Shown here one piece after another: positions 15,411 through 34,804 of a stretch of 64,000 bases of DNA. Source of the DNA: Desulfitobacterium sp. (GTDB lineage: Bacteria > Bacillota > Desulfitobacteriia > Desulfitobacteriales > Desulfitobacteriaceae); contig JBFWMF010000016.1 of assembly GCA_050251735.1 (NCBI GenBank), positions 14,054 through 78,053 on the forward strand, read 5' to 3'. A model generated the notes under the pieces. The model had not been told where the DNA came from, searched no databases, and saw nothing but the letters and a program-made list of their open reading frames with translations. The position numbers were made by a program, and so were the translations under genes. Position 1 is the first letter of the stretch; every line of letters begins with the position of its first letter.

Positions 15411-16514
15411 ATGAGAAATAGTTTAGAGCAGTTATTATTGGAAATCAGTCTGTTAATTGAGCGGTGCGAACTGAAAGCACAAGAAGTGCCTCTGATAGTT
15501 ACTCAACTGCTTCAAGCAAAGGGTTGTGCAATTTATTTGCGGCGTGATGATGAGTCATATATCTTAAGTGAAGAATCTTCTTTGATACCCTTCTCTCATA
15601 ATTGGCAGCAATATACTAAAGACATACCAGAATCGGTACAGTATCTTAGTGAACCTGAGAAGATATCATCAATACTGCGACACAAAGATTGGCAAAGAAC
15701 CTTGATTATGCCCTTTAAAGGAGAATCCACAACGGAAGGAATTCTCCTCGCTTATTGGTCTGGTCCATCTCCCTTAGATGATTTAGACCAGAGAGAATTT
15801 TCGCTTTTACAACCCATAGCCAATCAATTGGCTATTATTTATTATTGGCAACCAAAAATGGAGAAGATGCGGCTAAGAGAAGAATCATTGACTACGATAT
15901 TTCATATAGCCGATCAGACCTTGGAAGATGATCGAAAGCGGATTGCTCGAAAACTCAGCTACGAAGTCGTTCAAGATTTAACATCTATCGTTCTACAGAC
16001 GAAGCTCCTCCAAGATTCTGTGGATTTTGAATATGTTCAGGGACGTCTAGGCGGGATTAGACATATTGTTTCACAAACCATAGAGGAAGTGCGAAGTCTA
16101 GTCCATAGCCAGCGACCGATACTTCTAGATAAACTTGGCTTACATGCTGTGTTAAATACTTATGTGCAAGAATTTATGGAAAGAACAAAAATACATGTGG
16201 AATTAATTCTGCCAGATGCGAATAAGCGCTTTGCAGAGCAGGTGGAAGTCCTGATCTTTCGTAGTGTACAGGAAGCCTTAGCAATCTGTGTCAGCCAGGT
16301 AGGTGTTAGTGAAACTTTTGTTAAATTATCTATGAAGGGGAATAATCTATTTTTGTGTATTAGTTATCTTGGGAAGATCACTATCGGAGAAAAGGACTCC
16401 GGGGTAGGAATATTGGCCATGAAAGAAAGAATAAAAAAACAAAATGGAGAGCTCTGGATTATGAAGCATAATGAGCAGTACCAGAGCTTGAATATCTTGT
16501 TGCCGTTGAGTTAA
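15411..16514 (+). CDS. Cytoplasmic GAF-like / HisKA_3 sensor kinase paralog, predicted catalytically dead
   Basis: No TM helices. The H-box reads RKLSYEVVQDL, with Tyr where paralogs have ELHDEVGQ. The N-box Asn is lost and DNGKGF is replaced by SYLGKIT. Confidence 0.8.
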   Translation: MRNSLEQLLLEISLLIERCELKAQEVPLIVTQLLQAKGCAIYLRRDDESYILSEESSLIPFSHNWQQYTKDIPESVQYLSEPEKISSILRHKDWQRTLIMPFKGESTTEGILLAYWSGPSPLDDLDQREFSLLQPIANQLAIIYYWQPKMEKMRLREESLTTIFHIADQTLEDDRKRIARKLSYEVVQDLTSIVLQTKLLQDSVDFEYVQGRLGGIRHIVSQTIEEVRSLVHSQRPILLDKLGLHAVLNTYVQEFMERTKIHVELILPDANKRFAEQVEVLIFRSVQEALAICVSQVGVSETFVKLSMKGNNLFLCISYLGKITIGEKDSGVGILAMKERIKKQNGELWIMKHNEQYQSLNILLPLS

Positions 16515-16534: not shown

Positions 16535-17263
16535 GTGAAGACCCGAATTTTTTTGGTTGATAGCCATACTTTGTTGCGTAATACTTTACGACTCTTTCTG
16601 GAATGTAAGGGAGATAATATTGAGGTAGTAGGGGAAGCCTCCACGGCAGCAAGTGCCATAGAAGGTGTCTTACGTTTGAACCCAGATATTGTTCTAATGG
16701 AGATAGATTTCCCCGATGCTGATGGAATTGCAGTCACCGCACATCTTCTAAGACTGTTGCCCCATATTAAGATTCTAGCTGTTACAGTCCACACTGAACA
16801 GACATATTTGTTACCTTTTATACAGGCGGGTGGTTACGGCTTCATCAATAAGTCGGCGACTGATCATGAATTAATAAAGGCTATTGTAAAGGTTCAGAAC
16901 AATGAAATCTACTTAAGCGAATCAGGAGTTCAGATCTTAGCTAGGTGTTATCAAAGTATAGGAATAGCTAAAGAAGCACCAACATATGCCGAAAAAGATG
17001 TACTAATAACCTCAATGGAAAAAGGAAAAGAAGCCGGAATAGCAATACAAGCAGATGAAGAAATTACGCCTGACATACTCTCTGAAAGAGAAAAACAAGT
17101 ACTTCGGTTACTTTCCCACGGTTATAATTATCGGGAAATAGGGGAAAGACTTTTTTTATCCATTAGTACGGTAGAGACTTATAAATGTCGAATTAGTGAA
17201 AAGTTACAAATGCCAAAGAAAACAGAACTGATTGAATATGCGATGAAACATAAAATCTTATAA
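16535..17263 (+). CDS. NarL/LuxR-family response regulator with Glu at the phospho-acceptor position
   Basis: GTG start after GGGGAGG. The REC domain reads LVDSH...VLMEIDFPDADG, where paralogs read LVDDH...VLMDLTLPDFDG. Has a C-terminal LuxR HTH (LSEREKQVLRLLSHGYNYREIGERLFLSISTVETYK). Confidence 0.85.
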   Translation: MKTRIFLVDSHTLLRNTLRLFLECKGDNIEVVGEASTAASAIEGVLRLNPDIVLMEIDFPDADGIAVTAHLLRLLPHIKILAVTVHTEQTYLLPFIQAGGYGFINKSATDHELIKAIVKVQNNEIYLSESGVQILARCYQSIGIAKEAPTYAEKDVLITSMEKGKEAGIAIQADEEITPDILSEREKQVLRLLSHGYNYREIGERLFLSISTVETYKCRISEKLQMPKKTELIEYAMKHKIL

Positions 17264-17311
17264 CGAGTCAGAAAAATGCCGACAAAGGCTTGTGATAAAC
17301 GGTGCATTCAA

Positions 17312-17344
17312 CCGACAGACTGAAAGCCTTCTTCAATATAAACT
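17312..17344 (+). promoter_or_regulatory. Module promoter box CCGACAGA-N19-TAAACT (upstream of molybdoenzyme 1)
   Basis: CCGACA at 17312-17317, 21 nt, TAAACT at 17339-17344. A second CCGACA lies 33 nt upstream (17279-17284). Confidence 0.5.
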
Positions 17345-17364
17345 AAAGTTGAACAGTTAAGGAG

Positions 17365-20262
17365 TTGTTTCGGGTGAAACAGGACGGAAAAGAAGAAACT
17401 ATGGAAAAATTGATCATAGTAGCTATATCTAATTATTGGATGCGTATATCGGTGTTAGACCTACTGGAAAGCCAAGAACTCAAATACCTTTGTGCAGAAA
17501 GCCTACCTGATCTCAATACGTCAGCCGAAGGCTCGGCAGGGGTAATCGCTGTGGTAGACGCATTTTCTAATAAGGAAGATCTACAAGAAATGGTAGATCA
17601 GCTACAAGGGATGGCATCAGTACAAAGTGTGCTTCTTTTAGTTCCAGATGAAATTTTTCCTAATTTACCTCAATGGGGTGGGAGAGTCATACCTATCGGG
17701 TACGGGAAGATTCTGACGGAGATACTGCCTGTTTTAAAGGAAGAATTACTTCGCCCAAATCAACTACCGACTTTAAACACGAAGGAGGTAAATTTAATGG
17801 GAAATGAAAATGGCAACATTTTTGAGAGAAAGGTAGGCAGAAGAAGTTTCCTCAAAGGTTCAGCCGCGGCCGCAGTCGTTACTGGGGTAGCTATCGCGAA
17901 CCCTTGGGATACGGCAACTCAGGCCTTAGCGGTAGGTGAGAGTGCAAACCCTACTTCAGAAAGCAAGGAACTGTTGGTATCAAGTGCCTGTAGGTCAAAC
18001 TGCTTCCAGAGTTGTCGGTTAAATGCCCACGTGATTGATGGAAAAGTAGTTAAGACTACACCGGCTTCTTATCCGGATGAAATTTATACAGGATCTTGTT
18101 TGAAAGGGCTATCCCTCGTGCAAAGAACCTACAGCCCAACACGGATCAAACATCCCATGCGTCGAGTTGGCGAACGAGGCGAAGGTCAATGGGAAGTCAT
18201 TTCTTGGGACGAAGCAATTACTGAAATAGCCGATAAGTTTATGGCCATTCAAGAAAAATATGGCCCTAAATCACTGGCTCTTGATGTGGGTTCAGGAAAT
18301 TATGGTCTAGTTCATGGAGTATTAGGTATTTTTAATCGGCTCATCAATTCTATCGGGTGTACGAAAATCAATGTTTGCTATGACCAAGCGACAGGCCACG
18401 GCTCAGACCGGGTCATCGGCGGTAGTGTTTGGTTGTGGGGAAATGAGCCTCGCACCATGATGGACTCCAAAAACATTATCGTCTGGGGTTCTAACCCTGT
18501 ATACTCCCAACCCCAAAACTGGCGGATATTGAAAGAAGCAAAAAAAGGTGGCGCAAAAGTCATTACCATAGACCCCATCTTCTCAGCGACAGCCAATCAA
18601 TCCGATGAATATATTCCGGTGACTCCTGGAACAGATTTAATGCTAGTACTTGCTATGATCAATTATATTATCGAACAAGATTTAATGAATATTGACTTCA
18701 TGAAAAAGAGAAGTACAGCCACCTTCCTCGTCCGTAGAGATAACGGTTTAGTGTTGAGAAAAAGCGACTTTGCTCCTGAGACTCCGGACACCGAAGACGA
18801 CTTTTATGTATGGGATAGTGTCGCCAATGCGCCAGCCCTCCTAAAGGATGGCCCCCAAGATGTGGCTATCGAGGGAAACTTTAATGTTCAAGGAATAGAT
18901 GTGGACACTACCTTTACCCTCCTTAAGAATGAGATGAAGGAATACACCCTAGAAAAGGCCAGCGAGCTTACCAAAATACCCGTAGAAAAAATCATTGAAT
19001 TAACAAAAACCTATGTGGATGGACCGACTACTATCTATACCAATTATGGTATTGACCATTACCAAAACGGCCATTTGTGGTCCTTCGCGGTCTTTATCAT
19101 GGCGTCTCTTACCGGCAATATCGGCGTAAAGGGAGCAGGCTTCACAGGGCTATTTGTACAAAACATCCCCATTAATTACATCGGCATGTATATTACAAAC
19201 ATGAAAATGGCTGATGGAAACTCCATACCCCAAACGGAGTTTCATAAAGTAGTAAGAGATCAAGCCATCGAGGGTAAGCCTTATCCGATCAAGGCCTTAT
19301 ATACCACTTCTTCAAATTCGATGAGCAATTGGGCCCAACAGAATCTATGGTTAACGGATATTCTCCCCAACTTGGAATTCACAGTCGTCGTAGATACAGA
19401 GCTAACGGATACGGCAAGATATGCAGATATCGTATTACCAGCGGCTTTTTGGTTTGAAGTTAATGATCTCCGTGTCAACTATAATAATCCTTATATCTAT
19501 ATGCAAGAAAAAGCAATTGAACCTTTATATGAAAGTAAACCTGATGGAGAGATTATCGCCATGATTGCTCGGAAGATGGGCTTAGGCCAATTCTTCCCTG
19601 AGAATATGGATGATACCGAGTGGATCAAGGTCTTGTTAGATTCTGATAAGCTTCGTGCCATGGGTATTACTTATGAACGTTTATTGGAAGAAAAGGTTGT
19701 AAGGGGTACAGGTAGTGCAGAAAAACCTTATATCCGTGGCGAACAGTTTTTTAATACGCCAAGTGGTAGAGCCCAGCTTTATTGTGAGAATCCGCAACCT
19801 CGTGTTAATTATGGCCAAAATTTGACGGGTATCATCGAAAAAGAAAGAATGCCCTATTATAAACCTCCTGGCGAAGCATCAAAGGACAATCCTTTATTCT
19901 CCAAGTATCCTTTGGTTTTCATACAAGAACATTCCCGGTTCCGTTCGCATACCCAATGGTTTAACACCCCCATATTACGTGAGCTTGATCCGGAGCCCCT
20001 AGCCAAGATTAGCCGAGAAGACGCGAAAATCCGGGGAATTAAGACGGGGGATATCGTAGAAGTGTTTAATGATCGGGGCAAGGCGGTGCTCAAGGCTGAA
20101 GTCAACGACGCGATTAGTACAGGAGTTATATCTATCCCTAAAGGCTGGCAACGAGAACAATTTATCGAAGGTTGCTTCCAAGAATTGACCAACAGTACTT
20201 CAGATCCCATGGCCGTCAATTTTGCCTACTTTGATTGCCTGGTTGATGTGAAAAAAAGATAA
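17365..20262 (+). CDS. DMSO-reductase-family molybdopterin oxidoreductase catalytic subunit (Tat substrate), module 1
   Basis: Internal start: GAAGGAGG, 8 nt, ATG 17797, then GRRSFLKGSAAAA...ALA/VG. FS0 cysteines CRSNCFQSC...SCLKG (C-x3-C-x3-C-xn-C). MopB core of about 820 aa. Substrate unknown. Confidence 0.9.
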   Translation: MFRVKQDGKEETMEKLIIVAISNYWMRISVLDLLESQELKYLCAESLPDLNTSAEGSAGVIAVVDAFSNKEDLQEMVDQLQGMASVQSVLLLVPDEIFPNLPQWGGRVIPIGYGKILTEILPVLKEELLRPNQLPTLNTKEVNLMGNENGNIFERKVGRRSFLKGSAAAAVVTGVAIANPWDTATQALAVGESANPTSESKELLVSSACRSNCFQSCRLNAHVIDGKVVKTTPASYPDEIYTGSCLKGLSLVQRTYSPTRIKHPMRRVGERGEGQWEVISWDEAITEIADKFMAIQEKYGPKSLALDVGSGNYGLVHGVLGIFNRLINSIGCTKINVCYDQATGHGSDRVIGGSVWLWGNEPRTMMDSKNIIVWGSNPVYSQPQNWRILKEAKKGGAKVITIDPIFSATANQSDEYIPVTPGTDLMLVLAMINYIIEQDLMNIDFMKKRSTATFLVRRDNGLVLRKSDFAPETPDTEDDFYVWDSVANAPALLKDGPQDVAIEGNFNVQGIDVDTTFTLLKNEMKEYTLEKASELTKIPVEKIIELTKTYVDGPTTIYTNYGIDHYQNGHLWSFAVFIMASLTGNIGVKGAGFTGLFVQNIPINYIGMYITNMKMADGNSIPQTEFHKVVRDQAIEGKPYPIKALYTTSSNSMSNWAQQNLWLTDILPNLEFTVVVDTELTDTARYADIVLPAAFWFEVNDLRVNYNNPYIYMQEKAIEPLYESKPDGEIIAMIARKMGLGQFFPENMDDTEWIKVLLDSDKLRAMGITYERLLEEKVVRGTGSAEKPYIRGEQFFNTPSGRAQLYCENPQPRVNYGQNLTGIIEKERMPYYKPPGEASKDNPLFSKYPLVFIQEHSRFRSHTQWFNTPILRELDPEPLAKISREDAKIRGIKTGDIVEVFNDRGKAVLKAEVNDAISTGVISIPKGWQREQFIEGCFQELTNSTSDPMAVNFAYFDCLVDVKKR
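17374..17796 (+). other. Receiver-like N-terminal extension, in frame with molybdoenzyme 1
   Basis: AAGGAG at 17359-17364, then GTG 17374. Alternating beta/alpha pattern KLIIVAIS, GVIAVVDAF, SVLLLVP, RVIPIG. There is no stop before the Tat-signal ATG at 17797. Confidence 0.5.
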
Positions 20263-20277: not shown

Positions 20278-20895
20278 ATGCGTTATTCAATGGCGATAGA
20301 TATTGATCGCTGTACAGGATGCAATGCCTGTGCGGTAGCGTGCAAGGTTGATAATAATCTGCCCAATAGCATTTGGTGGAATAGAATTTTAACTGTGGGT
20401 GGAGAAAGTATGGATACGCCTAAAGGTACTTTCCCAAACCTTCATATGAAGTTTTTACCTGTTAATTGTCAGCACTGTGATAATCCACCCTGTGTCAAAG
20501 CTTGTCCGGTCAAGGCCACCTATAAAAGAGAAGAAGATGGTGTTATTGTCCAAGATTATGATAAGTGTATCGGCTGTCGGATGTGCATGGTCGCTTGTCC
20601 TTATAATGCCCGTAGCTTTAATTGGAGTAAACCAGATTATGCAATCGAAGTTCCCATGGGTGATAGGAACGTTACCCCTCATCAATACAATGCCGTAGAA
20701 AAGTGTACCTTCTGTAGCCATCGCTTGGCTCAAGACTTACAGCCCGCTTGTATCGATACATGTCCCAACAGAGCCCGTTTTTTTGGCGATCTAGATGATC
20801 CAAATAGCGATGTGAGTAAAGCCATCCAAGGCCGCAATTATGTAAAACTACTCGAAGAAAAGGGTACCATGCCCTCAGTCTTCTATTTAACTTAA
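20278..20895 (+). CDS. 4x[4Fe-4S] electron-transfer subunit (DmsB/PsrB-like), module 1
   Basis: Four Cys clusters: CTGCNACAVAC, CQHCDNPPCVKACP, CIGCRMCMVACP and CTFCSHR...CIDTCP. Confidence 0.92.
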   Translation: MRYSMAIDIDRCTGCNACAVACKVDNNLPNSIWWNRILTVGGESMDTPKGTFPNLHMKFLPVNCQHCDNPPCVKACPVKATYKREEDGVIVQDYDKCIGCRMCMVACPYNARSFNWSKPDYAIEVPMGDRNVTPHQYNAVEKCTFCSHRLAQDLQPACIDTCPNRARFFGDLDDPNSDVSKAIQGRNYVKLLEEKGTMPSVFYLT

Positions 20896-20911: not shown

Positions 20912-22105
20912 ATGAGTGAAAAAGCGGTAAAACAGGTTTACACTAAACCCTTATTTATCCTATTCGCCCTGCTGACTGTCGTCGGCGTAGTCTGCTGGTA
21001 TCTGCAGCTTTCCAAGGGCTTACAACTGACCAACCTAAATAACTTTGCCACTTGGGGTTTATATATTATCGGCTTCATGATCTTCACAGGAATCGCAGCG
21101 GGATCTCTGATCATTGCCTCCTCAGCCTACCTCTTCAAAGGTATGGCTGAGTACAAGCCGTTTGCAAGAATCGCAGCCTTCGTGGGAGCGATCGGCAGCG
21201 TTGTCGCCGCCGGACTTTTCATCATCGTCGACATCGGTAACCCGGAGAGAGCCTGGTATTTCATCACCAGCGGAAATATTTCATCTCCCATGTTCTGGGA
21301 TAGCCTGATCCTCGGAGCTTATGTCATCATCGGCATTTTCTTTACCCGTCAGCTTATGCTGGTCAGCGAAGGACAAAAGGAAGAAAAATCTCTGAAGACC
21401 ATCTCCATTATCGCTTTCATCGCCGGACTCATGGTCATGGTCACTTCCTTTGTCTTTGCTCTGCAAGTGGCTCGTCCCATGTGGAATAATCCCGTTGAAC
21501 CGGTATCCTTCTTAGCGGCAGCTTTAGTGGCAGCACTTGCTTTACTAATGATCATCTTTGCGGTCCTGAACAAGAGCGGCTACATCGATATCAGCAGTGA
21601 ACAGCTGGCGAAGATAGGCAAGTTGGCCGGAATATTCCTCTTCTTTGAACTCTTCGTGGTCGTTGGCGAAGCAATTATTGGTCTGTATGCAGGAGCAGGT
21701 GAAGAAGCAGAAGTTATTCACTGGATGGTTTCTGGAGAAGGTGCGCCCTTCTTCTGGGTACAGATTATCGCCATCGTCTTAGGTTTAGCACTACTATCAA
21801 ATAAGAAACCAGGCACTCTTATCCTTGGAGCAGTCGTAGCATTATTTGCCATCTTTATGGTCAAATATAACCTATTGCAAGCCCCTTTGCTTAATCCTTT
21901 AATCACCTATGCAGGGCCTCCTGGCTATGGTGCCAGTCAAGGAGTTTATCTGCCTTCGCTGATCGAGATCGGCGTATCCGTTGGCATCATCGCCATGGGT
22001 GGCATGCTGGTCATGATCGGCCTAGATAAACTGAACCTTGGCAAAAAGGCCAAGAAAGGTGCAGGAAAAGGCCAAGCCCAAGGTAGTATAGCTGCTAAGG
22101 CTTGA
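20912..22105 (+). CDS. NrfD/PsrC-type polytopic membrane anchor (quinol-interacting) subunit, module 1
   Basis: 397 aa with about 10 TM helices and a Lys-rich C-terminal tail. About 90% aa identity (by eye) to the module 2 and 3 copies. Confidence 0.85.
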   Translation: MSEKAVKQVYTKPLFILFALLTVVGVVCWYLQLSKGLQLTNLNNFATWGLYIIGFMIFTGIAAGSLIIASSAYLFKGMAEYKPFARIAAFVGAIGSVVAAGLFIIVDIGNPERAWYFITSGNISSPMFWDSLILGAYVIIGIFFTRQLMLVSEGQKEEKSLKTISIIAFIAGLMVMVTSFVFALQVARPMWNNPVEPVSFLAAALVAALALLMIIFAVLNKSGYIDISSEQLAKIGKLAGIFLFFELFVVVGEAIIGLYAGAGEEAEVIHWMVSGEGAPFFWVQIIAIVLGLALLSNKKPGTLILGAVVALFAIFMVKYNLLQAPLLNPLITYAGPPGYGASQGVYLPSLIEIGVSVGIIAMGGMLVMIGLDKLNLGKKAKKGAGKGQAQGSIAAKA

Positions 22106-22257: not shown

Positions 22258-22404
22258 ATACCACTAGGAGGATGCCCAAAGGGGCTTTTTCTTTCGTAGT
22301 GAAAAACACGACAAGGCCTAGGTGCTGTCATGTTTTACCTGATAGAGCTTGCACCATTTTTGCGGTATACTAGAATAACCAAAGCACTTTCGGGAGGACT
22401 TTTT

Positions 22405-23532
22405 GTGTCTGAATCAAAGTTATTGTTTTCACTTCTCTTAAATTTAAGCAGTAAGATCGAAGAAATCGGAACAGAGAGGGCAAGGTTGGAGTTGCCGAAG
22501 CTGATTTGTACTCTTTTAGAGACCGATGGATGCGCACTATATTTTAGTAAATCCGATAGGGAGGGTCTTTTTCTAGCTAATCAATACTCTATTCCTCAGG
22601 GTCAGGTTTTTGCGGATACTTGGCCGGAAAATTGGTCGCCCATATCGGATAGTGCCGAATACCTAAATAACCATGAAATGGCTAAGGGCTTTGCCGAAGA
22701 TAATAGCTTTAAAATGTGTTTAATTCTGCCACTGCATATAGAGGGAAAGATTGCTGGAGTCGTCTTGATGGGTTGGAAGAGCTCCAGTTCACTGGAGGAG
22801 CTATCTCCAAAGGATCTGCAACTATTACAATCGATTTCTATGCTTTTATCCCATGTCTATTGCGTTTATCCTCTTATCAATAAATTAAGGCAGAGAGAAA
22901 CGAATTTAGCGACACTTTATCGGAAGGCTGAGGATGACCTGGAAACCAGCCGTAAGAAGGTGTCTCTTGAACTCCACGACGAAGTTGGACAGGTCTTGAC
23001 TTCAATTTTATTGCAGTTGAAGCTATTACAGCAGTCTGATGACCTAGAATACATGAAGGGGAGGCTTGGCGGCCTTCATCACATAACCTTAGAGACATTA
23101 GATGAAGTAAGGCGCATTTCCCAGAATCTCCGCCCTAATCTTTTAGAGAAGCTGGGTTTACAAGCAGCAGTAGAGGCCCATATCAAAGAATATAGAGAAA
23201 ATACAGGTATTGAAGTAGAGCTGCGAACCCATAACTTAAGCGAGCGTATAGCTGAAAATATAGAGACCATCACTTATCGTGCGGTTCAAGAAGGCTTGAC
23301 GAATGTGGCTCGCCACTCGGGTGCTAATAGGGTAATTATTAACCTGACTATCAAGGGAAATAATCTTTTCTTGCAGATCACCGATAATGGTAAAGGGTTC
23401 AAGAAAAACGACGTCCATGGGACAGGGCTCTTAGGTATGAGGGAGCGATCGACTAGGGTCGGTGGAAAGTTCTGGCTTGTTAACAAAGTAGACCAAGGCC
23501 TGACGATCAATATGTTATTACCTTTAGTGTAG
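22405..23532 (+). CDS. Cytoplasmic GAF-like / HisKA_3 sensor histidine kinase, module 2 (intact)
   Basis: ORF 22330-23532; likely start is GTG 22405 (GGAGGA 7 nt upstream). H-box LELHDEVGQ, N-box QEGLTNVARH, DNGKGF, GTGLLGMRER. No TM helices. Confidence 0.88.
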   Translation: MSESKLLFSLLLNLSSKIEEIGTERARLELPKLICTLLETDGCALYFSKSDREGLFLANQYSIPQGQVFADTWPENWSPISDSAEYLNNHEMAKGFAEDNSFKMCLILPLHIEGKIAGVVLMGWKSSSSLEELSPKDLQLLQSISMLLSHVYCVYPLINKLRQRETNLATLYRKAEDDLETSRKKVSLELHDEVGQVLTSILLQLKLLQQSDDLEYMKGRLGGLHHITLETLDEVRRISQNLRPNLLEKLGLQAAVEAHIKEYRENTGIEVELRTHNLSERIAENIETITYRAVQEGLTNVARHSGANRVIINLTIKGNNLFLQITDNGKGFKKNDVHGTGLLGMRERSTRVGGKFWLVNKVDQGLTINMLLPLV

Positions 23533-23545
23533 TTTGGAGGTCATC

Positions 23546-24220
23546 ATGAAAGAACAGACAAAAGTATTTCTGGTAGACGATCATAAGTTGCTACGGGATA
23601 CTTTAAGGATGTTTTTAGAAAACTGCAAAGAGATTGAGGTCGTAGGGGAGGCCGGCAATGGTGCCGATGCCGTTAAGGGGATATTGGATCTAAAACCCGA
23701 ATTAGTCTTAATGGATCTTACGTTGCCTGATTTTGATGGAGTAGAGGCGACAACCCAAATTATGCGTGCCTTGCCCAAAACCAAGGTTATCGCTGTAACC
23801 ATGCACCCGGAAAAGCTTTATTTGTTAAAATTTCTCGAAGCTGGTGGGGTAGGTTATGTTCACAAGTCAGCAGCTGATCGGGAGTTGTTGCAAGCGCTTG
23901 AGCGGGTTCAACAAGGAGAGGTTTTTCTAAGTCCGGAGGGTGTACAGGTCGTGGCCGGGCAGTTTAGAGTTCAAAACGCTCCATTGCCTGAGGAAGAAGA
24001 TATAAAAGGTATACCACCTGACATACTCTCCGCACGAGAGCGCCAAGTCCTTGGTTTGCTATCCCATGGCTATAGTTGTCGTGAGATAGGGAAAAGGCTT
24101 TTCTTATCGACGAGTACCATTGAAACCTATAAAAAACGGGTTAGCGATAAGCTTCATTTAGAAAACAGGAAGGATCTTGTGGAATATACCATCCGACACA
24201 AAATATTTGAAGAACTGTAA
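23546..24220 (+). CDS. NarL/LuxR-family response regulator, module 2
   Basis: ATG 23546 after GGAGGT. Has VDDH, LVLMDLTLPDFDG, AVTMH, HKSA and a LuxR HTH. Confidence 0.9.
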   Translation: MKEQTKVFLVDDHKLLRDTLRMFLENCKEIEVVGEAGNGADAVKGILDLKPELVLMDLTLPDFDGVEATTQIMRALPKTKVIAVTMHPEKLYLLKFLEAGGVGYVHKSAADRELLQALERVQQGEVFLSPEGVQVVAGQFRVQNAPLPEEEDIKGIPPDILSARERQVLGLLSHGYSCREIGKRLFLSTSTIETYKKRVSDKLHLENRKDLVEYTIRHKIFEEL

Positions 24221-24250
24221 AAACTGTCGTGAATTCCATGACAGTTTTAA
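24221..24250 (+). terminator. Hairpin directly after regulator 2 (possible partial terminator)
   Basis: AAACTGTC-gtgaattccat-GACAGTTTT. Confidence 0.45.
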
Positions 24251-24272
24251 TCGTGAATAAATGTACTTATCC

Positions 24273-24305
24273 CCGACAGACATTTTCTGTTTATTTCATT
24301 AAACT
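24273..24305 (+). promoter_or_regulatory. Module promoter box CCGACAGA-N19-TAAACT (upstream of molybdoenzyme 2)
   Basis: CCGACA at 24273-24278, 21 nt, TAAACT at 24300-24305. Confidence 0.5.
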
Positions 24306-24314
24306 AAAAACGAA

Positions 24315-27260
24315 TTGTATGCGCATACGATCGAAGGAGTTGTTTTTGTGAACGCGAAAAGCGGAGCAAGGGGAAGGGTGAAGGATCCCCAAGTTTTAGT
24401 CGCTGTCTCCAATGACTGGTTACAGCTTCCGATTATAGATATGCTTTCTGCACAGCGAGAAGGCTATATTCGAGTGAAATCTTTAGCGGAGCTTTATCAG
24501 CGGGTAAAAGAGTTTTCCAGGTGTATTGTGATTATTGATATCTTTACCTACGCTGAGCACCATCAGGATATTCTGAAGCGACTCTACGAAGAAAACCCTT
24601 GCCTGTCTATTATTCCTCTCGTTTCAAAGGATAAGCTGGCTTACGCTCAGTATCTAGACTCCAGTGCTTCTTGTTACAGTGTGGCCAAGGAGGATGTCGA
24701 TACGCAGCTTATGCCAGTGCTTGGTTGTGCCTATAAGGATCAGAGGTTAATAGCAGACGCTTATGCTTTGCTTCGGGAACAAAAACAATTGCCAACTTTA
24801 AACAAAAAGGAGGCAAATTTAATGAAAAAAGAAGATGGAAGCATTTTCGGGCGAAAGTTTGGGAGAAGAAGCTTTCTCAAAGGCTCGGCTGCAGCAGCTG
24901 CGGTAGCTGGCGTGGCTGTGGCTAGCCCTGGGAACACAGTAATGAAGGCATTGGCAGCGACTGGCAACACAACAACAATGGCCCCAGAAGAAAAGGTTTT
25001 CCCAGTTGTTTGCCGTGGTAACTGTGTTGGAACTTGTCAAATGAACGCACATGTGAGAAACGGAAAGCTTGTTAAAATGTCCAAGAGGGAAGCTGTAGAT
25101 CCTCGTTATACACGGATTTGTCAAAGGGGGCGTACTAATCCTCTGCGTGTTTATAGCCCCGAAAGGCTTAAATACCCGATGCGGCGGGTTGGCGAACGTG
25201 GAGAAGGTAAGTGGGAACAAATTTCATGGGACGAGGCTATTGACGAAATTTGCACCAAATGGAAAGGTTACCAAAAAGAACACGGCAAAGAAAGCATCTT
25301 TTTTGCTAGTGGCTCTGGTAATTATGGATCAGAGGTTAGAAACTATTCAACCCGTTTGGTGAATTTCATGGGTGCTTCTAGGATGAGTTCTGCCTTGGAT
25401 AGCGCGGTTGTTGTTTCAGCCGGGAGGGCTCTCGGTTACGGAGCGTATTTGGGAGCAAATTCTCCAACTGATTGGGTCAATTCAAACTATATCTTTGTAT
25501 GGGGCACTAACTTTACTCAAGCTTGGAATGCCAATTGGCACTTTTTGGCCGAAGCACAGAAGGCCGGGGCAAAAATGATTTGTATTGATCCGGTTTTTAA
25601 TATAGTAGCATCTAAATCTGATATGTTTGTGCCCATCAGACCATGTACGGATGCTCTTTTGGCGATGGCAATGACTCAAATCGTCATTGATGAAGGATTG
25701 GCCGACGAAAAATATTTAAAAAAATGTTCTGTTGCGCCGTTTATGGTCAAAGAAAGTGATGGGAGGTTCATGCGCCTGAGTGATTTGGGCAAAGCAACCG
25801 CCGGAACGGCTACAGACGCTATCGTAGTTAGAGGTGTCGACGGCAGTATTGGTGTGCCTGCAGATATCCCTGATCCTGTTTTACACGGAACTTTTACGAT
25901 CAATGATATTAAAGTTACCACTGCCTATGATTTACTGATTGAACGACTGACGCAATTCCCGCCCGATAACGCAGCCAAGGTATGCGATATTCCTTTAGAA
26001 ACAATCAAAAATATGGCACGGATGTTTGCAGAAGGACCCGCATGTATCGCGGGGGGCTATGGCCCCGACCACTATACGAACGGGCATCATGCCTACCAAG
26101 CTATGTATACCTTGTTGATGGTAACGGGGAATTTTGGAAAACCGGGCACCGGGCTGGCAGGGGGATTTAATTTTTCTTTGGGTCTTCATGGTCCTAGTAC
26201 AAATTCAATGGATAATCCGAAAAACCATTTGTCTTCAGCACCAAATGTCCCGTCTGTAAAGATGCTGGATGTAATAAAAACTGGAAAATATGGAGACATT
26301 TCTGTTACTCCTAAAAGCATGTTTGTGCAAGCTTTCAACGTGATTGGTAATCTTTGTGAGCGAAAAGCTTATCTAGAGGTATTCAACAAGTTAGACTTGG
26401 TGGTTGTGGCAGATATAACAATGTCCGAAACTGCAAGCTATGCCGACATTGTTCTCCCTGTGCCTCACTGGTTTGAAGTAGATAGCCTTGTTAACTTTGG
26501 TACGCAATTTGTAAGTATTTCGGATAAGGCTATTGAACCGCTCTATGAATGCAAGGGAGATTTTGAAATAATTAATTTATTAGGAGAGGGAATGGACCTT
26601 GGTTCTGAGTTTCCACTAACCAAAGAGGAATACTTTACAAGATCCTTCGAAAACGATTATTCCAAAAGTATTGGACTTAGCTATGAAAGGTTGAAGAAGG
26701 AAAAACAATTACCTACTTGGATTGGGGATTATATACACGGTGCCGGCGGAGTATATCCGACCACAACAGGCCGTGCTCAGTTTTATTTAGAAAATGTAGT
26801 TCCAAACTTCCGATATGGACAGGTAGTTAATTTGGATAATTCGAGACTACCATACTGGGAGCAACCCATTGAAGCTTGGCATGACTATGATTTGGCTAAA
26901 AAATACCCTCTGATTTTCACTTCTGAACGGGCGAGATTCCATTGCCATACCCAATTCGGCGATGTACAATGGTTCAAAGAATTAGAGCCTGAGCCATTTG
27001 TAAGAATTAGCCTTCAGGACGCAGCAACTAGGGGAATTAGTAATGGAGATACCGTCAAAGTATTTAATGACAGAGGGTATGTAGTAGTGAAAGCAGTCAT
27101 TCATAACGGGATCCGTCCGGGGATGCTGGTTATGCCCCATGCGTGGCAAAAGCATCATTTTATTGATGGCCATTATTCAGATTTAAGTTCTAGGGCAACA
27201 AATCCAGATGTAGCGAATAATGCCTTTTTCGATGCATTATGCGAAATACAGAAGATGTAA
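24315..27260 (+). CDS. DMSO-reductase-family molybdopterin oxidoreductase catalytic subunit (Tat substrate), module 2
   Basis: Internal start: AAGGAGG at 24807-24813, 8 nt, ATG 24822, then GRRSFLKGSAAAAAV...ALA/AT. FS0 cysteines CRGNCVGTC...ICQRG. Confidence 0.9.
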   Translation: MYAHTIEGVVFVNAKSGARGRVKDPQVLVAVSNDWLQLPIIDMLSAQREGYIRVKSLAELYQRVKEFSRCIVIIDIFTYAEHHQDILKRLYEENPCLSIIPLVSKDKLAYAQYLDSSASCYSVAKEDVDTQLMPVLGCAYKDQRLIADAYALLREQKQLPTLNKKEANLMKKEDGSIFGRKFGRRSFLKGSAAAAAVAGVAVASPGNTVMKALAATGNTTTMAPEEKVFPVVCRGNCVGTCQMNAHVRNGKLVKMSKREAVDPRYTRICQRGRTNPLRVYSPERLKYPMRRVGERGEGKWEQISWDEAIDEICTKWKGYQKEHGKESIFFASGSGNYGSEVRNYSTRLVNFMGASRMSSALDSAVVVSAGRALGYGAYLGANSPTDWVNSNYIFVWGTNFTQAWNANWHFLAEAQKAGAKMICIDPVFNIVASKSDMFVPIRPCTDALLAMAMTQIVIDEGLADEKYLKKCSVAPFMVKESDGRFMRLSDLGKATAGTATDAIVVRGVDGSIGVPADIPDPVLHGTFTINDIKVTTAYDLLIERLTQFPPDNAAKVCDIPLETIKNMARMFAEGPACIAGGYGPDHYTNGHHAYQAMYTLLMVTGNFGKPGTGLAGGFNFSLGLHGPSTNSMDNPKNHLSSAPNVPSVKMLDVIKTGKYGDISVTPKSMFVQAFNVIGNLCERKAYLEVFNKLDLVVVADITMSETASYADIVLPVPHWFEVDSLVNFGTQFVSISDKAIEPLYECKGDFEIINLLGEGMDLGSEFPLTKEEYFTRSFENDYSKSIGLSYERLKKEKQLPTWIGDYIHGAGGVYPTTTGRAQFYLENVVPNFRYGQVVNLDNSRLPYWEQPIEAWHDYDLAKKYPLIFTSERARFHCHTQFGDVQWFKELEPEPFVRISLQDAATRGISNGDTVKVFNDRGYVVVKAVIHNGIRPGMLVMPHAWQKHHFIDGHYSDLSSRATNPDVANNAFFDALCEIQKM
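24348..24821 (+). other. Receiver-like N-terminal extension, in frame with molybdoenzyme 2
   Basis: AAGGAG at 24334-24339, then GTG 24348. VLVAVSNDW, CIVIIDIFTY, SIIPLVSKD and CYSVAKED occupy the beta1, beta3(Asp), beta4(Ser) and beta5(Lys) positions. Confidence 0.55.
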
Positions 27261-27906: not shown

Positions 27907-29100
27907 ATGAGTGAAAAAACAGAAAAACAGTTTTACACCAAACCCTTATTTATCCTCTTCGCCCTGCTGACACTAGTCGGCTTAGTCTGCTGGTATTTGC
28001 AACTTACCAAGGGCTTACAACTTACGAACCTGAATAATTTCGCCACCTGGGGTTTATATATCATCGGCTTCATGATCTTCACCGGTATCGCAGCAGGTTC
28101 CCTAGTCTTTGCTTCCTCAGCTTACCTCTTCAAAGGGATGGCTGAGTTCAAACCTCTCACCAGAATCGCAGCCTTCGTCGGAGCCATCGGCAGCGTTATA
28201 GCGGCCGGACTCTTCATCATCGTGGATATCGGTAACCCGGAGAGAGCATGGTATTTTATCACCAGCGGCAATATCTCTTCACCTATGTTCTGGGATAGCT
28301 TAATCCTTGGTGCTTATGTGGTCATCGGTATCTTCTTCACCCGGCAGCTGATGCTGGTCAACGAAGGGCAAAAAGAAGAAAAATCCCTTAAAGCTATTTC
28401 TATCATCGCCTTTATCGCTGGACTCATGGTCATGGTCACTTCTTTCGTCTTTGCACTACAAGTGGCACGCCCTATGTGGAATAATCCAGTAGAACCCGTA
28501 TCCTTCTTGGCCGCAGCTTTAGTAGCAACTTTCGCTTTGCTGATGATCATCTTTGCAGTCCTGAACAAGAGTGGCTACATCGAGATCAGCAGTGAACAAC
28601 TAGCTAAAATGGGCAAGCTGTCCGGAGTATTTCTCCTCTTTGAACTCTTCGTAGTATTAGGGGAAGCAGTCATCGGTCTATATGCAGGAGCAGGTGAAGA
28701 AGCGGAGGTTATCCATTGGATGGTACTTGGTGAAGGAGCACCCTTCTTCTGGGTACAAATCATCGCCATCGTCTTAGGTTTGGTACTCCTCTTCAACAAA
28801 AAAACAGGCACACTTGTCCTGGGCGCGGTGGTAGCTATCTTTGCCATCTTCATGATCAAATACAACCTCCTGCAAGCGCCCTTGCTTAATCCCTTACTCA
28901 CCTATGCAGGGCCTCCCGGGTATGGGGCAAGCGAAGGAGTATATCTACCATCTCTAATTGAGATTGGTGTATCTGTAGGTATCATCGCCATGGGTGGAAT
29001 GCTGGTTATTATTGGTTTAGATAAGCTGAACCTTGGCAAGAAGACCAAGAAAGCTGCAGGGAAAGGTCAAGCTCAAGGTAGTATAACTGCCAAGGCTTGA
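27907..29100 (+). CDS. NrfD/PsrC-type membrane anchor subunit, module 2
   Basis: 397 aa, nearly colinear with the module 1 and 3 copies. Confidence 0.85.
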   Translation: MSEKTEKQFYTKPLFILFALLTLVGLVCWYLQLTKGLQLTNLNNFATWGLYIIGFMIFTGIAAGSLVFASSAYLFKGMAEFKPLTRIAAFVGAIGSVIAAGLFIIVDIGNPERAWYFITSGNISSPMFWDSLILGAYVVIGIFFTRQLMLVNEGQKEEKSLKAISIIAFIAGLMVMVTSFVFALQVARPMWNNPVEPVSFLAAALVATFALLMIIFAVLNKSGYIEISSEQLAKMGKLSGVFLLFELFVVLGEAVIGLYAGAGEEAEVIHWMVLGEGAPFFWVQIIAIVLGLVLLFNKKTGTLVLGAVVAIFAIFMIKYNLLQAPLLNPLLTYAGPPGYGASEGVYLPSLIEIGVSVGIIAMGGMLVIIGLDKLNLGKKTKKAAGKGQAQGSITAKA

Positions 29101-29281: not shown

Positions 29282-29962
29282 ATGGAAAATACAATAGAAC
29301 AAAAAATACAAAAGGCTATCTCCACTTCGGATATGCATCAAATTTTGGCTATTGCTTTGCAACTACCTACTCAGGAGCTAGTTAAAGGAGTATTAAATGG
29401 AAGCCTGGCCGATGATATTTTGTCAATTTACCAAGAGCTCGATCTTCCTAACGAAACGATTGAGAACTTGGTAACAAAATTTGCTGAGCTTAAAAATAGC
29501 AAGATCACAAAAGAAGAACTTCTTACTGAGTTGAGACAAGAATATACCCGCTTGTTCACTCATCCTAAGAAGTCGGAAATCGAAATTTATGAGACCCTAT
29601 TCCGGTACGTTCCAGAAGAGGGAGAGGGTAAACCTTCTCTTTTCATAAGTCCGGCAGCCCTGGATGCGGAGCGTTGTTATAAAAAAGCTGGTCTGGTCAA
29701 ATCTAAGGATGTTAATGAGCCGGGAGATCATATGGCTACCGAGATGGAATTCATGATGTTTCTCTATCTGGAAATGGCCAAGGCTTTGCAAGGGGACAAT
29801 AAGGAGGAGGTTGCTCGCAGAGAAGCGGAGATCAAAGAATTTAATGAGCTGCATCTGCAGAGATGGGCTAAGTTTTTCTTTGAGAAAATGGCGACCGTAA
29901 GCCATAGTGCTTTCTATAGAATCATTGGCGAAATTGGTAGTGAACGGTATAAAGGGAATTGA
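29282..29962 (+). CDS. TorD/DmsD-family redox-enzyme maturation chaperone
   Basis: 226 aa with the motifs EYTRLF and GDHMATEMEFMMFL. Confidence 0.8.
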   Translation: MENTIEQKIQKAISTSDMHQILAIALQLPTQELVKGVLNGSLADDILSIYQELDLPNETIENLVTKFAELKNSKITKEELLTELRQEYTRLFTHPKKSEIEIYETLFRYVPEEGEGKPSLFISPAALDAERCYKKAGLVKSKDVNEPGDHMATEMEFMMFLYLEMAKALQGDNKEEVARREAEIKEFNELHLQRWAKFFFEKMATVSHSAFYRIIGEIGSERYKGN

Positions 29963-31267: not shown

Positions 31268-31286
31268 CCATAATTGAATGAAGGAA

Positions 31287-31355
31287 AACCCTTTCTATAG
31301 AATCATTGGTGAGATGGGTAGTGCATTTGTTGCTGAAAACTTAGGCGATTGCTGA
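31287..31355 (+). pseudogene. Orphan duplicate of the TorD-like gene 3' end
   Basis: 31291-31324 matches 29910-29943 (about 31 of 34 nt). It reads NPFYRIIGEMGSAFVAENLGDC-stop, against SAFYRIIGEIGSERYKGN-stop in the intact gene. Confidence 0.6.
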
Positions 31356-31381
31356 TTTAATTCAGAGAATAGGGGGATAAT

Positions 31382-32754: not shown

Positions 32755-33549
32755 TTGATAGAAAACCAACAATTATCCGAATTATTAATGATAATGACGG
32801 CTGAAGTAAAGAACCCGAATAAAGCTAAAAGAATAACTGAACTCGCCTTAGATGTCCAGGCAGAAATCAAACGATTGCAATTACGGGAAGTCACTTTAGA
32901 GAAAATCTGCAAACAAGCTATCGACGAACTTGAAAACAATAAGAAGCAGCTTTCCCGAGAATTGCATGATCAGCTGGGACAAGCCATGACCTCGATTCTG
33001 TTGCAATTAAAGTTGTTGCAGAGGGAGCAGGATGTTGAGGTGATCCATGACCGCGTTGGTGGTTTGCGCTACCTTACTCAGCAGACCATTGAAGATGTGC
33101 GAAATTTATCGATGAATCTGCGACCAGCTGTCCTGGAAAATCTGGGTTTGGTGGCGGCCTTGGATTGGTACATAGAGGATTATCAACGCTATTCGGAGAT
33201 TGAAGTGGATTTTTGTAGTCCCCAGCTTAAGATGAGATTCCCCAATGCGATAGAAATTGTTGTCTATAGAGCAGTACAAGAAAGCCTAACCAACGTGGCA
33301 CGTCATGCTGAGGCGTCACGAGTTTCCGTTACCTTACAGGTGACTGAGAACTGTCTCCAACTGCAAGTGGCGGATAATGGTAAAGGAATGAATTCTCAAG
33401 ATATCCATCGGGGCTTAGGTTTGTTAGGTATGGAGGAACGGGTAAAAATGGCTAAAGGGGAATTTTCCTTAGAAAGCCAACAAGGGCTAGGAACCACCGT
33501 TATGATTACCCTACCTCTGACTACAGGAGGAAGTGTCAATGAAGAATAA
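32755..33549 (+). CDS. Short HisKA_3 histidine kinase without a sensor domain, module 3
   Basis: TTG 32755 after GGAGGA. 264 aa: a coiled-coil-like leader followed directly by the H-box RELHDQLGQ, QESLTNVARH, DNGKGM and GLGLLGMEER. Confidence 0.85.
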   Translation: MIENQQLSELLMIMTAEVKNPNKAKRITELALDVQAEIKRLQLREVTLEKICKQAIDELENNKKQLSRELHDQLGQAMTSILLQLKLLQREQDVEVIHDRVGGLRYLTQQTIEDVRNLSMNLRPAVLENLGLVAALDWYIEDYQRYSEIEVDFCSPQLKMRFPNAIEIVVYRAVQESLTNVARHAEASRVSVTLQVTENCLQLQVADNGKGMNSQDIHRGLGLLGMEERVKMAKGEFSLESQQGLGTTVMITLPLTTGGSVNEE

Positions 33550-34186
33550 TATTCGCGCTTTTCTAGTCGATGACCATACCTTGTTACGAAACGCTTTATG
33601 TATGCTTTTAGAAGGACAAAGCAATATTGAGGTCGTAGGTGGAGCCGCCAATGGCGCAGAAGCAGTTCGGGGAGTAATCAAGGCGAAACCGGATGTAGTG
33701 CTTATGGACATCACTCTACCTGATTTTGACGGAGTTGAAGCAACAGAAAAGATTTTGGCTGTGCTGCCACAAACCAAAGTTATCGCAGTCACCATGCATG
33801 TGGAAGAAGTCTATCTGCTGCAATTCTTAAATTCCGGCGGTATGGGGTATGTACACAAATCTGCAGCAGACCGCGACTTAATAAAAGCTATTGAGAGAGT
33901 CATTGAAGGAGAAGTATTTTTAAGTCCTGCTGGAGTGCAAGTGATGGCTCGTCAATATCGATGTACAGAGAAAGCTGAGGAAATCGACCCTGAGGTTTTA
34001 TCAGAGAGAGAACGTCAGGTGTTGCAATTAACCGCCCGTGGCTTTACCTCGAAAGAAATCGGAGAAAAGCTATTTCTATCTCCGCGCACTATAGAGACCT
34101 ATCGGGAACGAATTACAGTAAAGCTAAAATTGGAACACCGGTCCGATTTGGTGGATTACGCAATCCGCTATAAGCTACTGGGATAG
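33539..34186 (+). CDS. NarL/LuxR-family response regulator, module 3
   Basis: ATG 33539, 8 nt after AGGAGG; overlaps the end of kinase 3. Has VDDH, VVLMDITLPDFDG, AVTMH, HKSA and a LuxR HTH. Confidence 0.9.
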   Translation: MKNNIRAFLVDDHTLLRNALCMLLEGQSNIEVVGGAANGAEAVRGVIKAKPDVVLMDITLPDFDGVEATEKILAVLPQTKVIAVTMHVEEVYLLQFLNSGGMGYVHKSAADRDLIKAIERVIEGEVFLSPAGVQVMARQYRCTEKAEEIDPEVLSERERQVLQLTARGFTSKEIGEKLFLSPRTIETYRERITVKLKLEHRSDLVDYAIRYKLLG

Positions 34187-34255
34187 TGGTAGTATTTACT
34201 GACAGCAAATGTCCTTATTCTTACTTTCTCAAACGAAAAATAACTAGGTTTGTTC

Positions 34256-34288
34256 CCTACAGATTTAAAAAGGTGAGTCAGTTAAAAT
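34256..34288 (+). promoter_or_regulatory. Module promoter box CCTACAGA-N19-TAAAAT (upstream of molybdoenzyme 3)
   Basis: CCTACA at 34256-34261, 21 nt, TAAAAT at 34283-34288. Confidence 0.5.
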
Positions 34289-34297: not shown

Positions 34298-34804
34298 TTG
34301 TGCGAACAAGTGCAAAAGGGGCTGTTTTGGTTGGAAAAATGGAGCAATATTAGCGAGAACGAGGTGAAATCGCACACGGTTGTAGTGGCAATTCCTCATC
34401 GTTGGCTAAGGCAGGTAGTTGAAAGGATTTTTGTTTCTGCTCAGGTAGACTGCGTCTGCGTAGAAAATATCGAAGAACTGTATCAATCAATGGATGGAAA
34501 TACAGCGCTGACAATTGTCGATGTCTTTTCTTATTCCCAATATTATCGTGATATTTTCACCCAGCTGAAGCAACGAAATTCTGGTGTGCCTATTGTTGCC
34601 TTGGTGTCCGCAAGTAACACGGAGTATCAACATGAGTTAACAACTGCGGGGGCTAGCGCGATAGTGATTAAGGAAAACGCCGATGAGGAATTAATACCTG
34701 CTCTGGTTCAGGTGCTACGAGATCGGGAGTTCAATGATGCTGTGGCTCGATTACTAGAAAACCAAAAACAGTTTATCACTCTATTCAAAGAGGAGGTACA
34801 TCTA
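34298..34804 (+). other. Receiver-like N-terminal extension, in frame with molybdoenzyme 3
   Basis: Start is TTG 34298 or TTG 34331. VVVAIPHRW, LTIVDVFSY, PIVALVSAS and SAIVIKEN give a full CheY-like beta/alpha pattern with Asp, Ser and Lys landmarks but no acidic pair. Confidence 0.55.

Follow-up and report, generated by a model that had tools for sequence, protein, structure and literature searches.

A candidate two-start gene of Desulfitobacterium predicted to yield a Tat-exported molybdoenzyme and a minor pseudo-receiver-tagged isoform

The 64,000-nt stretch analyzed here (the window) is part of contig JBFWMF010000016.1 in a metagenome-assembled genome (MAG) of Desulfitobacterium sp. (GCA_050251735.1), and it carries three modules, in each of which a HisKA_3 kinase, a NarL-type regulator (REC+GerE), the catalytic subunit of a molybdoenzyme (gene A), a four-cluster ferredoxin (B) and an NrfD-like anchor (C) are encoded in this order. 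In gene A of module 1, the open reading frame (ORF) 17365-20262 (+) has 965 codons, 144 of which are open 5' of an internal ATG at 17797 where the precursor of an enzyme exported through twin-arginine translocation (Tat) would begin. We propose that gene A is a two-start gene giving the Tat precursor and a minor isoform tagged with a pseudo-receiver (PsR), and that the latter acts as a third component of the adjoining two-component system. Judging from the sequence and its homologs, we put the probability of this reading at about 0.6, and the regulatory role of the PsR as stated carries the same weight, while the anatomy of the gene together with its two starts is very likely to be right.

Gene A and its receiver-like extension

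The layout of gene A in module 1 is given in Table 1. The earlier note on this DNA had placed there an upstream GTG preceded by AAGGAG, and an internal consensus Shine-Dalgarno (SD) sequence and ATG leading into a Tat signal, and all of these elements were found at their positions. The upstream start is also that of the NCBI protein, MGE4273324.1 (962 aa, 100% identity), and because NCBI uses GTG 17374, no exact database record was found for the protein begun at 17365 or at 17797. From ATG 17797 on, the product reads MGNENGNIFERKVGRRSFLKGSAAAA...ALA/VG, in which the Tat motif S/T-R-R-x-F-L-K, the h-region and the AxA site are all present (GRRSFLKGSAAAAVVTGVAIA...ALA/VG). The Pfam TAT_signal model scores 20.3 bits against a cutoff of 22.7, and the twin arginines (RR), F and L of the motif are invariant across 37 homologs. 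This signal is N-terminal in the internal-start product; in the product of the long ORF the RR pair occupies residues 159-160. The Pfam matches 3' of the internal start are TAT_signal, Molybdop_Fe4S4, Molybdopterin and Molydop_binding. The three molybdenum (Mo) domains, the FS0 motif (C209/C213/C217/C245, invariant) and the adjoining 4x[4Fe-4S] and NrfD-like genes place the catalytic subunit in the dimethyl sulfoxide (DMSO) reductase family, with PDB sequence matches to PcrA-type and PsrA/PhsA enzymes; no equivalog model reaches its cutoff for it.

The part ahead of the Tat signal had been described as a receiver-like fold without the acidic pair, a description that structure prediction, Foldseek, a profile search and hhalign all bear out. 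The AlphaFold2 (AF2) check suggested at that time was run on residues 1-150 of module 1 and gives a receiver topology, with a predicted local distance difference test (pLDDT) value of 81, beta-alpha alternation in receiver order and a short alpha4. In the full-length AF2 model the confident bodies are residues 14-130 and ~200-965, and the low-confidence residues 131-199 correspond to the linker and the signal peptide. The best PDB matches of the extension in Foldseek are receiver domains (PmrA, DivK, CckA; template modeling score 0.67-0.77). We aligned a family of 42 extensions, taken from homologs of the whole protein, and its profile matches NarL-family regulators of PDB at E = 3e-6, with D65 aligned to the acceptor Asp of 4zmr/4e7o, and the cassettes' own regulators at a probability of 95% in hhalign. 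PF00072 matches 16 of the 42 extensions at E < 0.01 (best 7e-11); on those of the window it gives E = 1.4e-5 for module 3, with 25.6 bits against a cutoff of 30.2, and no match for modules 1 and 2.

The active site of this receiver fold is degenerate. The phospho-site Asp (D65, at the end of beta3) is D in 42/42 and is the only invariant column, but the first position of the acidic pair (DD) is P in 32 of the 42 sequences (S22 in module 1), and the second is N in 17, H in 16, D in four, S in three and E in two, hence acidic in just six (N23 in module 1). The Mg2+-binding acidic pair of receivers is thus missing from the extension, P/S and N/H standing in its place. At the T position (beta4) Ser is found in 30/42 and at the K position (beta5) Lys in 33/42, with P94 and Y113, respectively, in module 1. 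Of the three domains in the window, that of module 1 (S-N, D, P, Y) is the one that has degenerated furthest. The term PsR has been defined for receivers in which any one of DD, D, T or K is absent (PMC12632262), and by this definition the extension is a PsR.

The fusion is widespread. Among the best 120 whole-protein homologs, 49 have the RR pair at residues 93-184 (45 of them at 150-184) and not at ~12-15, and at least 45 homolog clusters from Desulfitobacterium, Desulfosporosinus, Dehalobacter and Syntrophomonadaceae are fused in frame. Further fused representatives came from an exhaustive hidden Markov model (HMM) search, and independent assemblies from NCBI, ENA, JGI and Logan carry the fusion. 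Within the window, 141-158 codons are open 5' of the internal SD and ATG in the three paralogs, and the frame is kept even though their extensions share only 22-28% pairwise identity, so that the recurrence of the layout in modules 2 and 3 despite strong divergence, remarked on in the earlier note, is real. The coding frame of these extensions has no stop, as against 5-14 in each of the other two frames, and base composition gives a probability of ~1e-4 per locus for 144 codons in a row without one. In related pairs, pN of the extension is 0.21-0.28 against a saturated pS of 0.72-0.84; pN and pS are given here since synonymous saturation mostly prevents a proper dN/dS, which is ~0.08-0.2 where estimable and so not near 1. 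Purifying selection acts on the extension, which is a genuine protein domain, and the claim that the open frame is selected rather than accidental holds.

These data bear directly on the view that the short protein is the sole product, with the stretch 5' of its start being an untranslated leader, an accidental frame, or an artefact of assembly or annotation. Some annotations do start later, and in one 90% cluster the Dehalobacter protein RJE47313.1 has 829 aa as against 971 and 968 aa for TCX53692.1 and WP_243103733.1. The chance of an accidental frame at three loci, the strong purifying selection, the confident receiver fold with its Pfam and PDB profile matches, the conserved SD and start, and the presence of the fusion in independent assemblies nevertheless make this view extremely improbable.

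The internal start

In nine aligned loci, the nucleotides that never vary at the internal start site are GGAGG, one A two bases 3' of it, and TG in the start codon. The same alignment showed no conserved RNA structure around the site. Across 13 loci the spacing from SD to start is 8 nt in 11 and 9 nt in two, and the codon is ATG in six and TTG in seven. In the alignment of the 42 extensions, the start column holds M in 21, L in 20 and V in one, precisely the amino acids that have a start codon among their codons, and the Leu is encoded by TTG in 7/7 lineages for which DNA was at hand, while TTG makes up only 17-28% of the Leu codons in the same genes and synonymous sites between lineages are saturated. 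A second SD and start inside an ORF are thus kept beyond the needs of the protein, as is looked for in a gene with two isoforms.

Close relatives without the extension begin at the equivalent place. The short forms P0020, P0026, P0032 and L014 have 74-76% identical enzymes, an in-frame stop 21-42 codons 5' of the RR motif, and a start at the homologous SD-spacer-ATG, which would read K-E-E-V-x-x-M if translated in frame. These reductases, PsrABC/PhsABC-like and from Bacillota (for instance P0020, of the Clostridia MAG DULZ01000053.1), share with the long forms the B and C partners, a TorD-like chaperone, the Tat signal and the SD-spacer-ATG geometry, and they differ from them by having no extension and no adjoining kinase or regulator. 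The wider enzyme clade includes the catechol-dehydroxylase-like enzymes of Eggerthellaceae (PMC7028382).

It could be argued that only the long protein is made and exported through its internal signal, with the internal SD and start being a relic of an unfused ancestor, since Tat can use signals that are not N-terminal (PMC5449189, PMC3471235). A relic would decay, however, and what is observed is that GGAGG, the spacing of 8-9 nt and a start-capable codon are kept while the linker diverges, and that a Leu at the start column is always TTG; this explanation is therefore very unlikely. Because a relic would not keep these features, translation of the short Tat precursor almost certainly starts within the long ORF. 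Of the two outcomes that the earlier note had foreseen, the conserved internal start favors two products from one ORF, and both are probably made from each gene.

The long start is a GTG or TTG in 11 of the 12 long-form loci that could be read, these 11 by our scan, the exception being L092, annotated with ATG, and such a weak start implies that the long form would be the minor product. A simple scan found no consensus sigma-70 promoter above chance inside the extension or the leader; we infer that a promoter controlled by the regulator lies just upstream of the long start.

The pseudo-receiver and the two-component cassette

The identity matrices of nine loci indicate that the extension is inherited with the kinase/NarL-regulator cassette and is uncoupled from the catalytic domain. 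Between module 3 and D. dichloroeliminans (L007), the extension, kinase and regulator are 68, 70 and 75% identical and the catalytic domain 46%; between module 1 and the same locus, the corresponding values are 32, 35 and 50% and, for the catalytic domain, 83%. Likewise, module 2 and L011 share 59% in the extension, 71% in the regulator and 38% in the catalytic domain, as against 25, 51 and 84% for L011 and L091 (kinase not applicable in both pairs). A NarL-type regulator is encoded directly 5' in 12/12 long-form loci, 10 of which also have a kinase, and neither gene is present in any of the four short-form loci (Fisher p = 5.5e-4, for the regulator). When genome contigs were searched with the full-length alignment, the useful loci among the matches listed were L011, L014 and L026, the others being mostly distant members of the DMSO reductase family.

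All the kinases of these cassettes are soluble, with no transmembrane segment, and those of the module 3 type (237-264 aa; 32755-33549 in the window, 4475-5218 in L007 and 4086-4799 in L093) consist of a coiled coil, DHp and CA and lack an input domain. Kinases and regulators look catalytically competent in modules 2 and 3. In module 1, an alignment with seven homologous kinases gives KLSYEVVQ in place of ELHDEVGQ at the H-box, hence no phospho-His; the N-box Asn is lost and G1 is degenerate, so that by its sequence the kinase-like protein is a pseudokinase. The regulator of this module is atypical too, with DS for DD and Glu at the phospho-site, and module 1 looks like a phosphorylation-independent version of the three-part cassette. 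The link to the adjoining GAF kinase and NarL-type regulator that had been suggested earlier is supported by co-inheritance and strict co-occurrence; in module 1 itself, coupling by phosphotransfer is excluded. The extension keeps its Asp in module 1 and also in L092, where the regulator has no phospho-Asp and no kinase adjoins; because of these two cases, the Asp hints at some role other than taking phosphate from a kinase.

Tat proofreading by signal-binding chaperones such as TorD and DmsD is well known, and an extension placed directly N-terminal to the signal peptide could be thought of as a cis-acting export-control or chaperone domain, similar to the redox enzyme maturation proteins, that masks the Tat signal until cofactor insertion and is unrelated to the two-component system. 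Such proofreading is established for this enzyme family (PMC4159696 for NapD). The extension, however, co-varies with kinase and regulator and not with the signal peptide or the catalytic domain; its fold is that of a receiver, not of NapD or of the TorD/DmsD/NarJ family (all-helical, Nitrate_red_del); and most molecules would escape such a domain by way of the conserved internal start. TorD-family genes, moreover, occur with long and short forms alike, so that the PsR does not replace these chaperones. We consider this role improbable.

Whether the domain also exists on its own was answered by the exhaustive HMM search with the extension profile, which covered 1.84 billion representatives and returned 1406 proteins at E < 1e-3; a word-indexed search of 5.8 billion entries was unfit for extension-only queries, as the module 3 extension missed even itself and the profile of the 42 extensions retrieved two fragments only. 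Ranked first were fused enzymes of 946-1008 aa. Next came a small number of stand-alone proteins (126-202 aa) that share the VAIPHxWLRE signature, and then mixed architectures, of which the two that were read, P0261 and P0185, have canonical receiver motifs. One stand-alone protein, P0131 (163 aa), occurs on three independent contigs, and its gene ends in a stop of its own. It is preceded by a PAS-HisKA_3 kinase and a NarL regulator and followed by a Tat molybdoenzyme of another subfamily (MTISRRAFLK), the ATG of which comes 19 nt after the end of its gene (L095 3041-3570). Another, P0129 (L098 570-1502), lies between a NarL-type regulator and a multi-transmembrane protein that is not a molybdoenzyme, and the cassette is therefore not restricted to Mo enzymes. 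These arrangements suggest that the PsR is a recurrent third gene of such cassettes that is read through into the enzyme gene in the clade of the fused enzymes. As a separate observation, the frame of the L095 enzyme continues open in the 5' direction across an A8 run (TCAAAAAAAAGAAA) of the PsR gene, and a single-base slip there would recreate the fusion.

The survey of fused against separate forms that had been called for gave a twofold answer, since the extension is fused in all of its bearers found in the close clade and is a separate gene with its own stop in a distant relative. Among the enzymes found in Desulfitobacterium, Desulfosporosinus, Dehalobacter and Syntrophomonadaceae, no split form was seen, nor any stop or frameshift between the extension and the Tat start. 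The fusion might still be neutral: the gene of an accessory protein would have lost its stop, the protein would work fused or free, for instance after proteolysis of the linker, and the long isoform would have no function. The stand-alone homologs in the same genomic position, the disordered linker and an internal start that frees the enzyme from the fusion all fit with this. Neutrality, though, predicts that split forms should be common in close relatives, and all extension-bearing Bacillota enzymes found are fused, down to 10-20% identity and through many length changes, always in frame, with a linker in which many codons (AAA, CAA, GAA, TTA, TTG) need a single mutation to become a stop, and no stop seen. 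Because near-stop codons fill the linker and extension lengths vary widely without any split form, these data argue that the fused state is upheld by selection, and we regard a neutral fusion as unlikely.

In the two-start scheme that we prefer, a regulator-dependent promoter would lie just 5' of the first start, a weak GTG or TTG with its own SD, from which a polypeptide of ~107 kDa would be made, composed of PsR, a disordered linker of ~15 residues, Tat signal and the Mo-bis(pyranopterin guanine dinucleotide) (Mo-bisPGD) enzyme. The second start, in the linker (GGAGG, 8 nt and ATG, or TTG in many relatives), would give an ordinary Tat precursor, identical in kind to that of the short-form relatives, presumed to be the abundant form that is exported and joins subunits B and C. 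The PsR would most likely be a third component, non-phosphorylatable or atypically phosphorylatable, that binds the DHp domain of the kinase or the receiver of the regulator; binding is proposed here rather than canonical phosphotransfer because the Mg site is lost. Since translation of the regulator-activated operon begins with this domain, which is covalently joined to the Tat precursor, its amount, location and lifetime could report enzyme synthesis and export back to the regulator.

Several points weigh against this scheme. Initiation at an SD within an actively translated ORF may be inefficient, and the TTG cases at the internal start include related lineages that are not strictly independent, though synonymously saturated. 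The short-form side of the co-occurrence comprises four loci only. Canonical phosphotransfer to the PsR is unlikely because the acidic pair is gone, and in module 1, where the kinase has no phospho-His and the regulator has Glu at the phospho-site, any coupling must be phosphorylation-independent. Lastly, the stand-alone genes of L095 and L098 indicate that the domain can work unfused and that covalent fusion is not universal, so the fusion could be tolerated rather than required.

A more daring version, which we find doubtful though worth stating, makes the long isoform an export-coupled signaling device. Tat would thread the enzyme across the membrane by the loop mechanism, reportedly described by Fincher in 1998 (cited in PMC13186574), with the signal peptide holding the PsR at the cytoplasmic side. 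Until it is cleaved, the protein would be a transmembrane 'enzyme-as-sensor'; cleavage would then leave behind one membrane-anchored PsR per export event, a stoichiometric record. In its tethered state the domain would engage the soluble kinase, which has no input domain or GAF only, or the NarL-type regulator, and the export or occupancy state of the operon's own product would in this way determine how the operon is transcribed. If true, this would be a new route for extracytoplasmic or maturation information into a cytoplasmic two-component system. The topology, with a Tat-targeted long isoform leaving its PsR in the cytoplasm, is plausible because non-N-terminal Tat signals are known from actinobacterial Rieske and other dual Sec/Tat proteins (PMC5449189, PMC3471235). 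Those proteins likewise have the RR well inside the polypeptide and an N-terminal part that would stay cytoplasmic, but what precedes their signal is a set of Sec-inserted transmembrane helices, with no soluble folded domain and no internal start.

Each part of the proposed arrangement has known counterparts. In-frame internal initiation that gives N-terminal proteoforms occurs in CheA-L/S, ClpB, IF2 and SsaQ. Such proteoforms have been surveyed (PMC11005335), and two-polypeptide endolysins have been described (PMC9430671). Gene A resembles these genes in having one ORF, two SD-led in-frame starts, a shared stop and isoforms expected to differ in localization; it differs in that the short form would expose an export signal which the long form buries behind a folded signaling domain. 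With the PsR domains already described (PMC12632262) the extension shares the (beta-alpha)5 fold and the loss of DD, keeping D in all members. Unlike them, it precedes a signal peptide and an exported enzyme in place of the usual C-terminal DNA-binding or enzymatic output, and it is an appendix to a complete kinase-regulator pair. Two-component systems in which an accessory protein or the regulated machinery serves as co-sensor include BceS-BceAB, DcuS-DctA/DcuB and TorS-TorT. These too combine kinases that have little or no input domain with an extra enzyme-linked component, which in our case is a receiver paralog fused to the enzyme precursor instead of a transporter or binding protein, its interaction being putative. 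The earlier note knew of no description of this arrangement, and in full-text literature, including the D. hafniense genome paper, the work on catechol dehydroxylases, reviews and a structure paper on Tat, the review of pseudo-receivers and a paper on N-terminal proteoforms, we found none either, neither of a receiver or PsR ahead of a Tat signal nor of any conserved internal start in a Tat precursor. Taken singly, N-terminal proteoforms, pseudo-receivers and internal Tat signals are known; as far as this literature goes, their combination and the tie to a two-component cassette are not.

The genes described here thus offer a sequence-level case, across several Bacillota families, of one gene with two N-terminal proteoforms that would differ in the exposure of an export signal, and of a PsR family that travels with HisKA_3/NarL cassettes and is physically joined to the enzyme behind the cassette. 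They suggest how soluble kinases without an input domain could learn of an extracytoplasmic respiratory enzyme, and they offer a test case from nature for the compatibility of Tat transport with a folded soluble domain in front of the signal peptide. Desulfitobacterium genomes encode more than 50 such molybdoenzymes, the substrates of which are mostly unknown (PMC3306737), and an understanding of the regulatory cassettes would help in assigning them. The proteins stand in public databases under generic names, and annotation pipelines treat such genes inconsistently. D. hafniense WP_058491023.1 is among the long-form proteins so affected, and one UniRef entry calls a long form 'Stage 0 sporulation protein A homolog' through its receiver match.

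Leaders, modules 2 and 3 and the remaining window

Table 1. Coordinates of the features of the three modules in the window.
Feature	Position	Strand	Basis and remarks
Module 1 kinase-like gene, HisKA_3 family, soluble	15411..16514	+	Pfam HisKA_3 only, no HATPase_c; maximum KD19 1.33, no transmembrane segment
Module 1 NarL-type regulator (REC+GerE)	16535..17263	+	Pfam Response_reg 3e-19, GerE 2e-14
Leader, putative promoter region of module 1 enzyme operon	17264..17373	+	Motifs kept in 8-9 homologous leaders
Upstream (long-isoform) start, GTG	17374..17376	+	SD AAGGAG 17359-17364, 9 nt before; NCBI protein start
Pseudo-receiver domain, ORF residues 14-130	17404..17754	+	AF2, Foldseek, PDB profile, hhalign, column statistics, pN << pS
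Disordered linker with internal ribosome-binding site GAAGGAGG 17781-17788	17755..17796	+	pLDDT < 50
Internal (predicted short-isoform) start, ATG	17797..17799	+	8 nt after GAAGGAGG; M/L/V column; homologous starts of short forms
Tat signal peptide (GRRSFLKG, h-region, ALA/VG cleavage)	17797..17931	+	Pfam TAT_signal; direct reading
Mature Mo-bisPGD catalytic subunit, DMSO reductase family, FS0 Cys motif	17932..20262	+	Pfam, NCBIfam, PDB sequence matches
Four-cluster ferredoxin subunit B, module 1	20278..20895	+	NCBIfam DsrO/ArrB/TtrB-like
NrfD/PsrC-like membrane anchor C, module 1	20912..22105	+	NCBIfam DsrP/TtrC/NrfD-like; maximum KD19 = 3.03
Module 2 GAF-HisKA_3-HATPase kinase (22330-23532) and NarL-type regulator (23534-24220)	22330..24220	+	Canonical residues in both
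Module 2 candidate two-start gene	24348..27260 (ORF 24315-27260)	+	GTG 24348, pseudo-receiver, AAGGAGG 24807-24813, ATG 24822, Tat signal, enzyme
TorD/NarJ-family chaperone gene	29282..29962	+	Pfam Nitrate_red_del (PF02613) 2.5e-19; only one detected among the window ORFs scanned
Module 3 minimal kinase (32755-33549) and NarL-type regulator (33533-34186)	32755..34186	+	DHp+CA only, no input domain, no transmembrane segment
Module 3 candidate two-start gene	34331..37246 (ORF 34298-37246)	+	TTG 34331, pseudo-receiver, GAGGAGG 34790-34796, ATG 34805, Tat signal, enzyme

The 100-170 nt that separate the long start from the regulator gene hold GACA(G) boxes, a TAAAAT-like box, a small palindrome, and AAGGAGYTGTTTTTG up to the start codon. 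In the leader of module 1, the GACA boxes are CGACAA (17280-17285) and CCGACAGAC (17312-17320), and a -10-like TATAAACT lies at ~17337-17344, ahead of the SD. The palindrome differs by lineage (GTATGCGCATAC, ATATGCGCATAT or GTGC..GCAC); in the leader of module 2 (24221-24347) it is GTATGCGCATAC, at 24317-24328, and the leader of module 3 spans 34187-34330. The boxes and the palindrome are candidate sites for the regulator or, alternatively, a candidate 5' stem-loop.

The C subunits of the three modules (20912-22105, 27907-29100 and 37895-39088) are 91% identical in protein and 84-87% in DNA, and the three signal peptides (17797-17931, and those beginning at 24822 and 34805) are 70-83% identical, the mature A subunits being just 38-46% identical. 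The chaperone gene is presumably common to all three modules. These identities, together with the one chaperone gene detected, suggest within-genome homogenization of the parts that fit shared partners. Between modules 2 and 3, 3' of the chaperone gene (29969-32539), an FMN_bind+Fer4_5 protein and a multi-[4Fe-4S] protein are encoded, a pair that also follows the chaperone in several homologous loci, both long- and short-form.

Directly after module 3 there is a DDE transposase gene (39517-41121, -). It is followed by what looks like a microcompartment cluster of the choline type (42210-58755), in which a glycyl-radical enzyme with its activase, PduV/EutP, a BCCT transporter and an aldehyde dehydrogenase are encoded. 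In the Rfam scan of the window, which gave no molybdenum cofactor or other riboswitch in the leaders, the sole match was a cyclic di-GMP-I riboswitch (RF01051, 75.9 bits) at 62251-62339 (+), just 3' of an ORF of 685 aa of the phosphodiesterase family.

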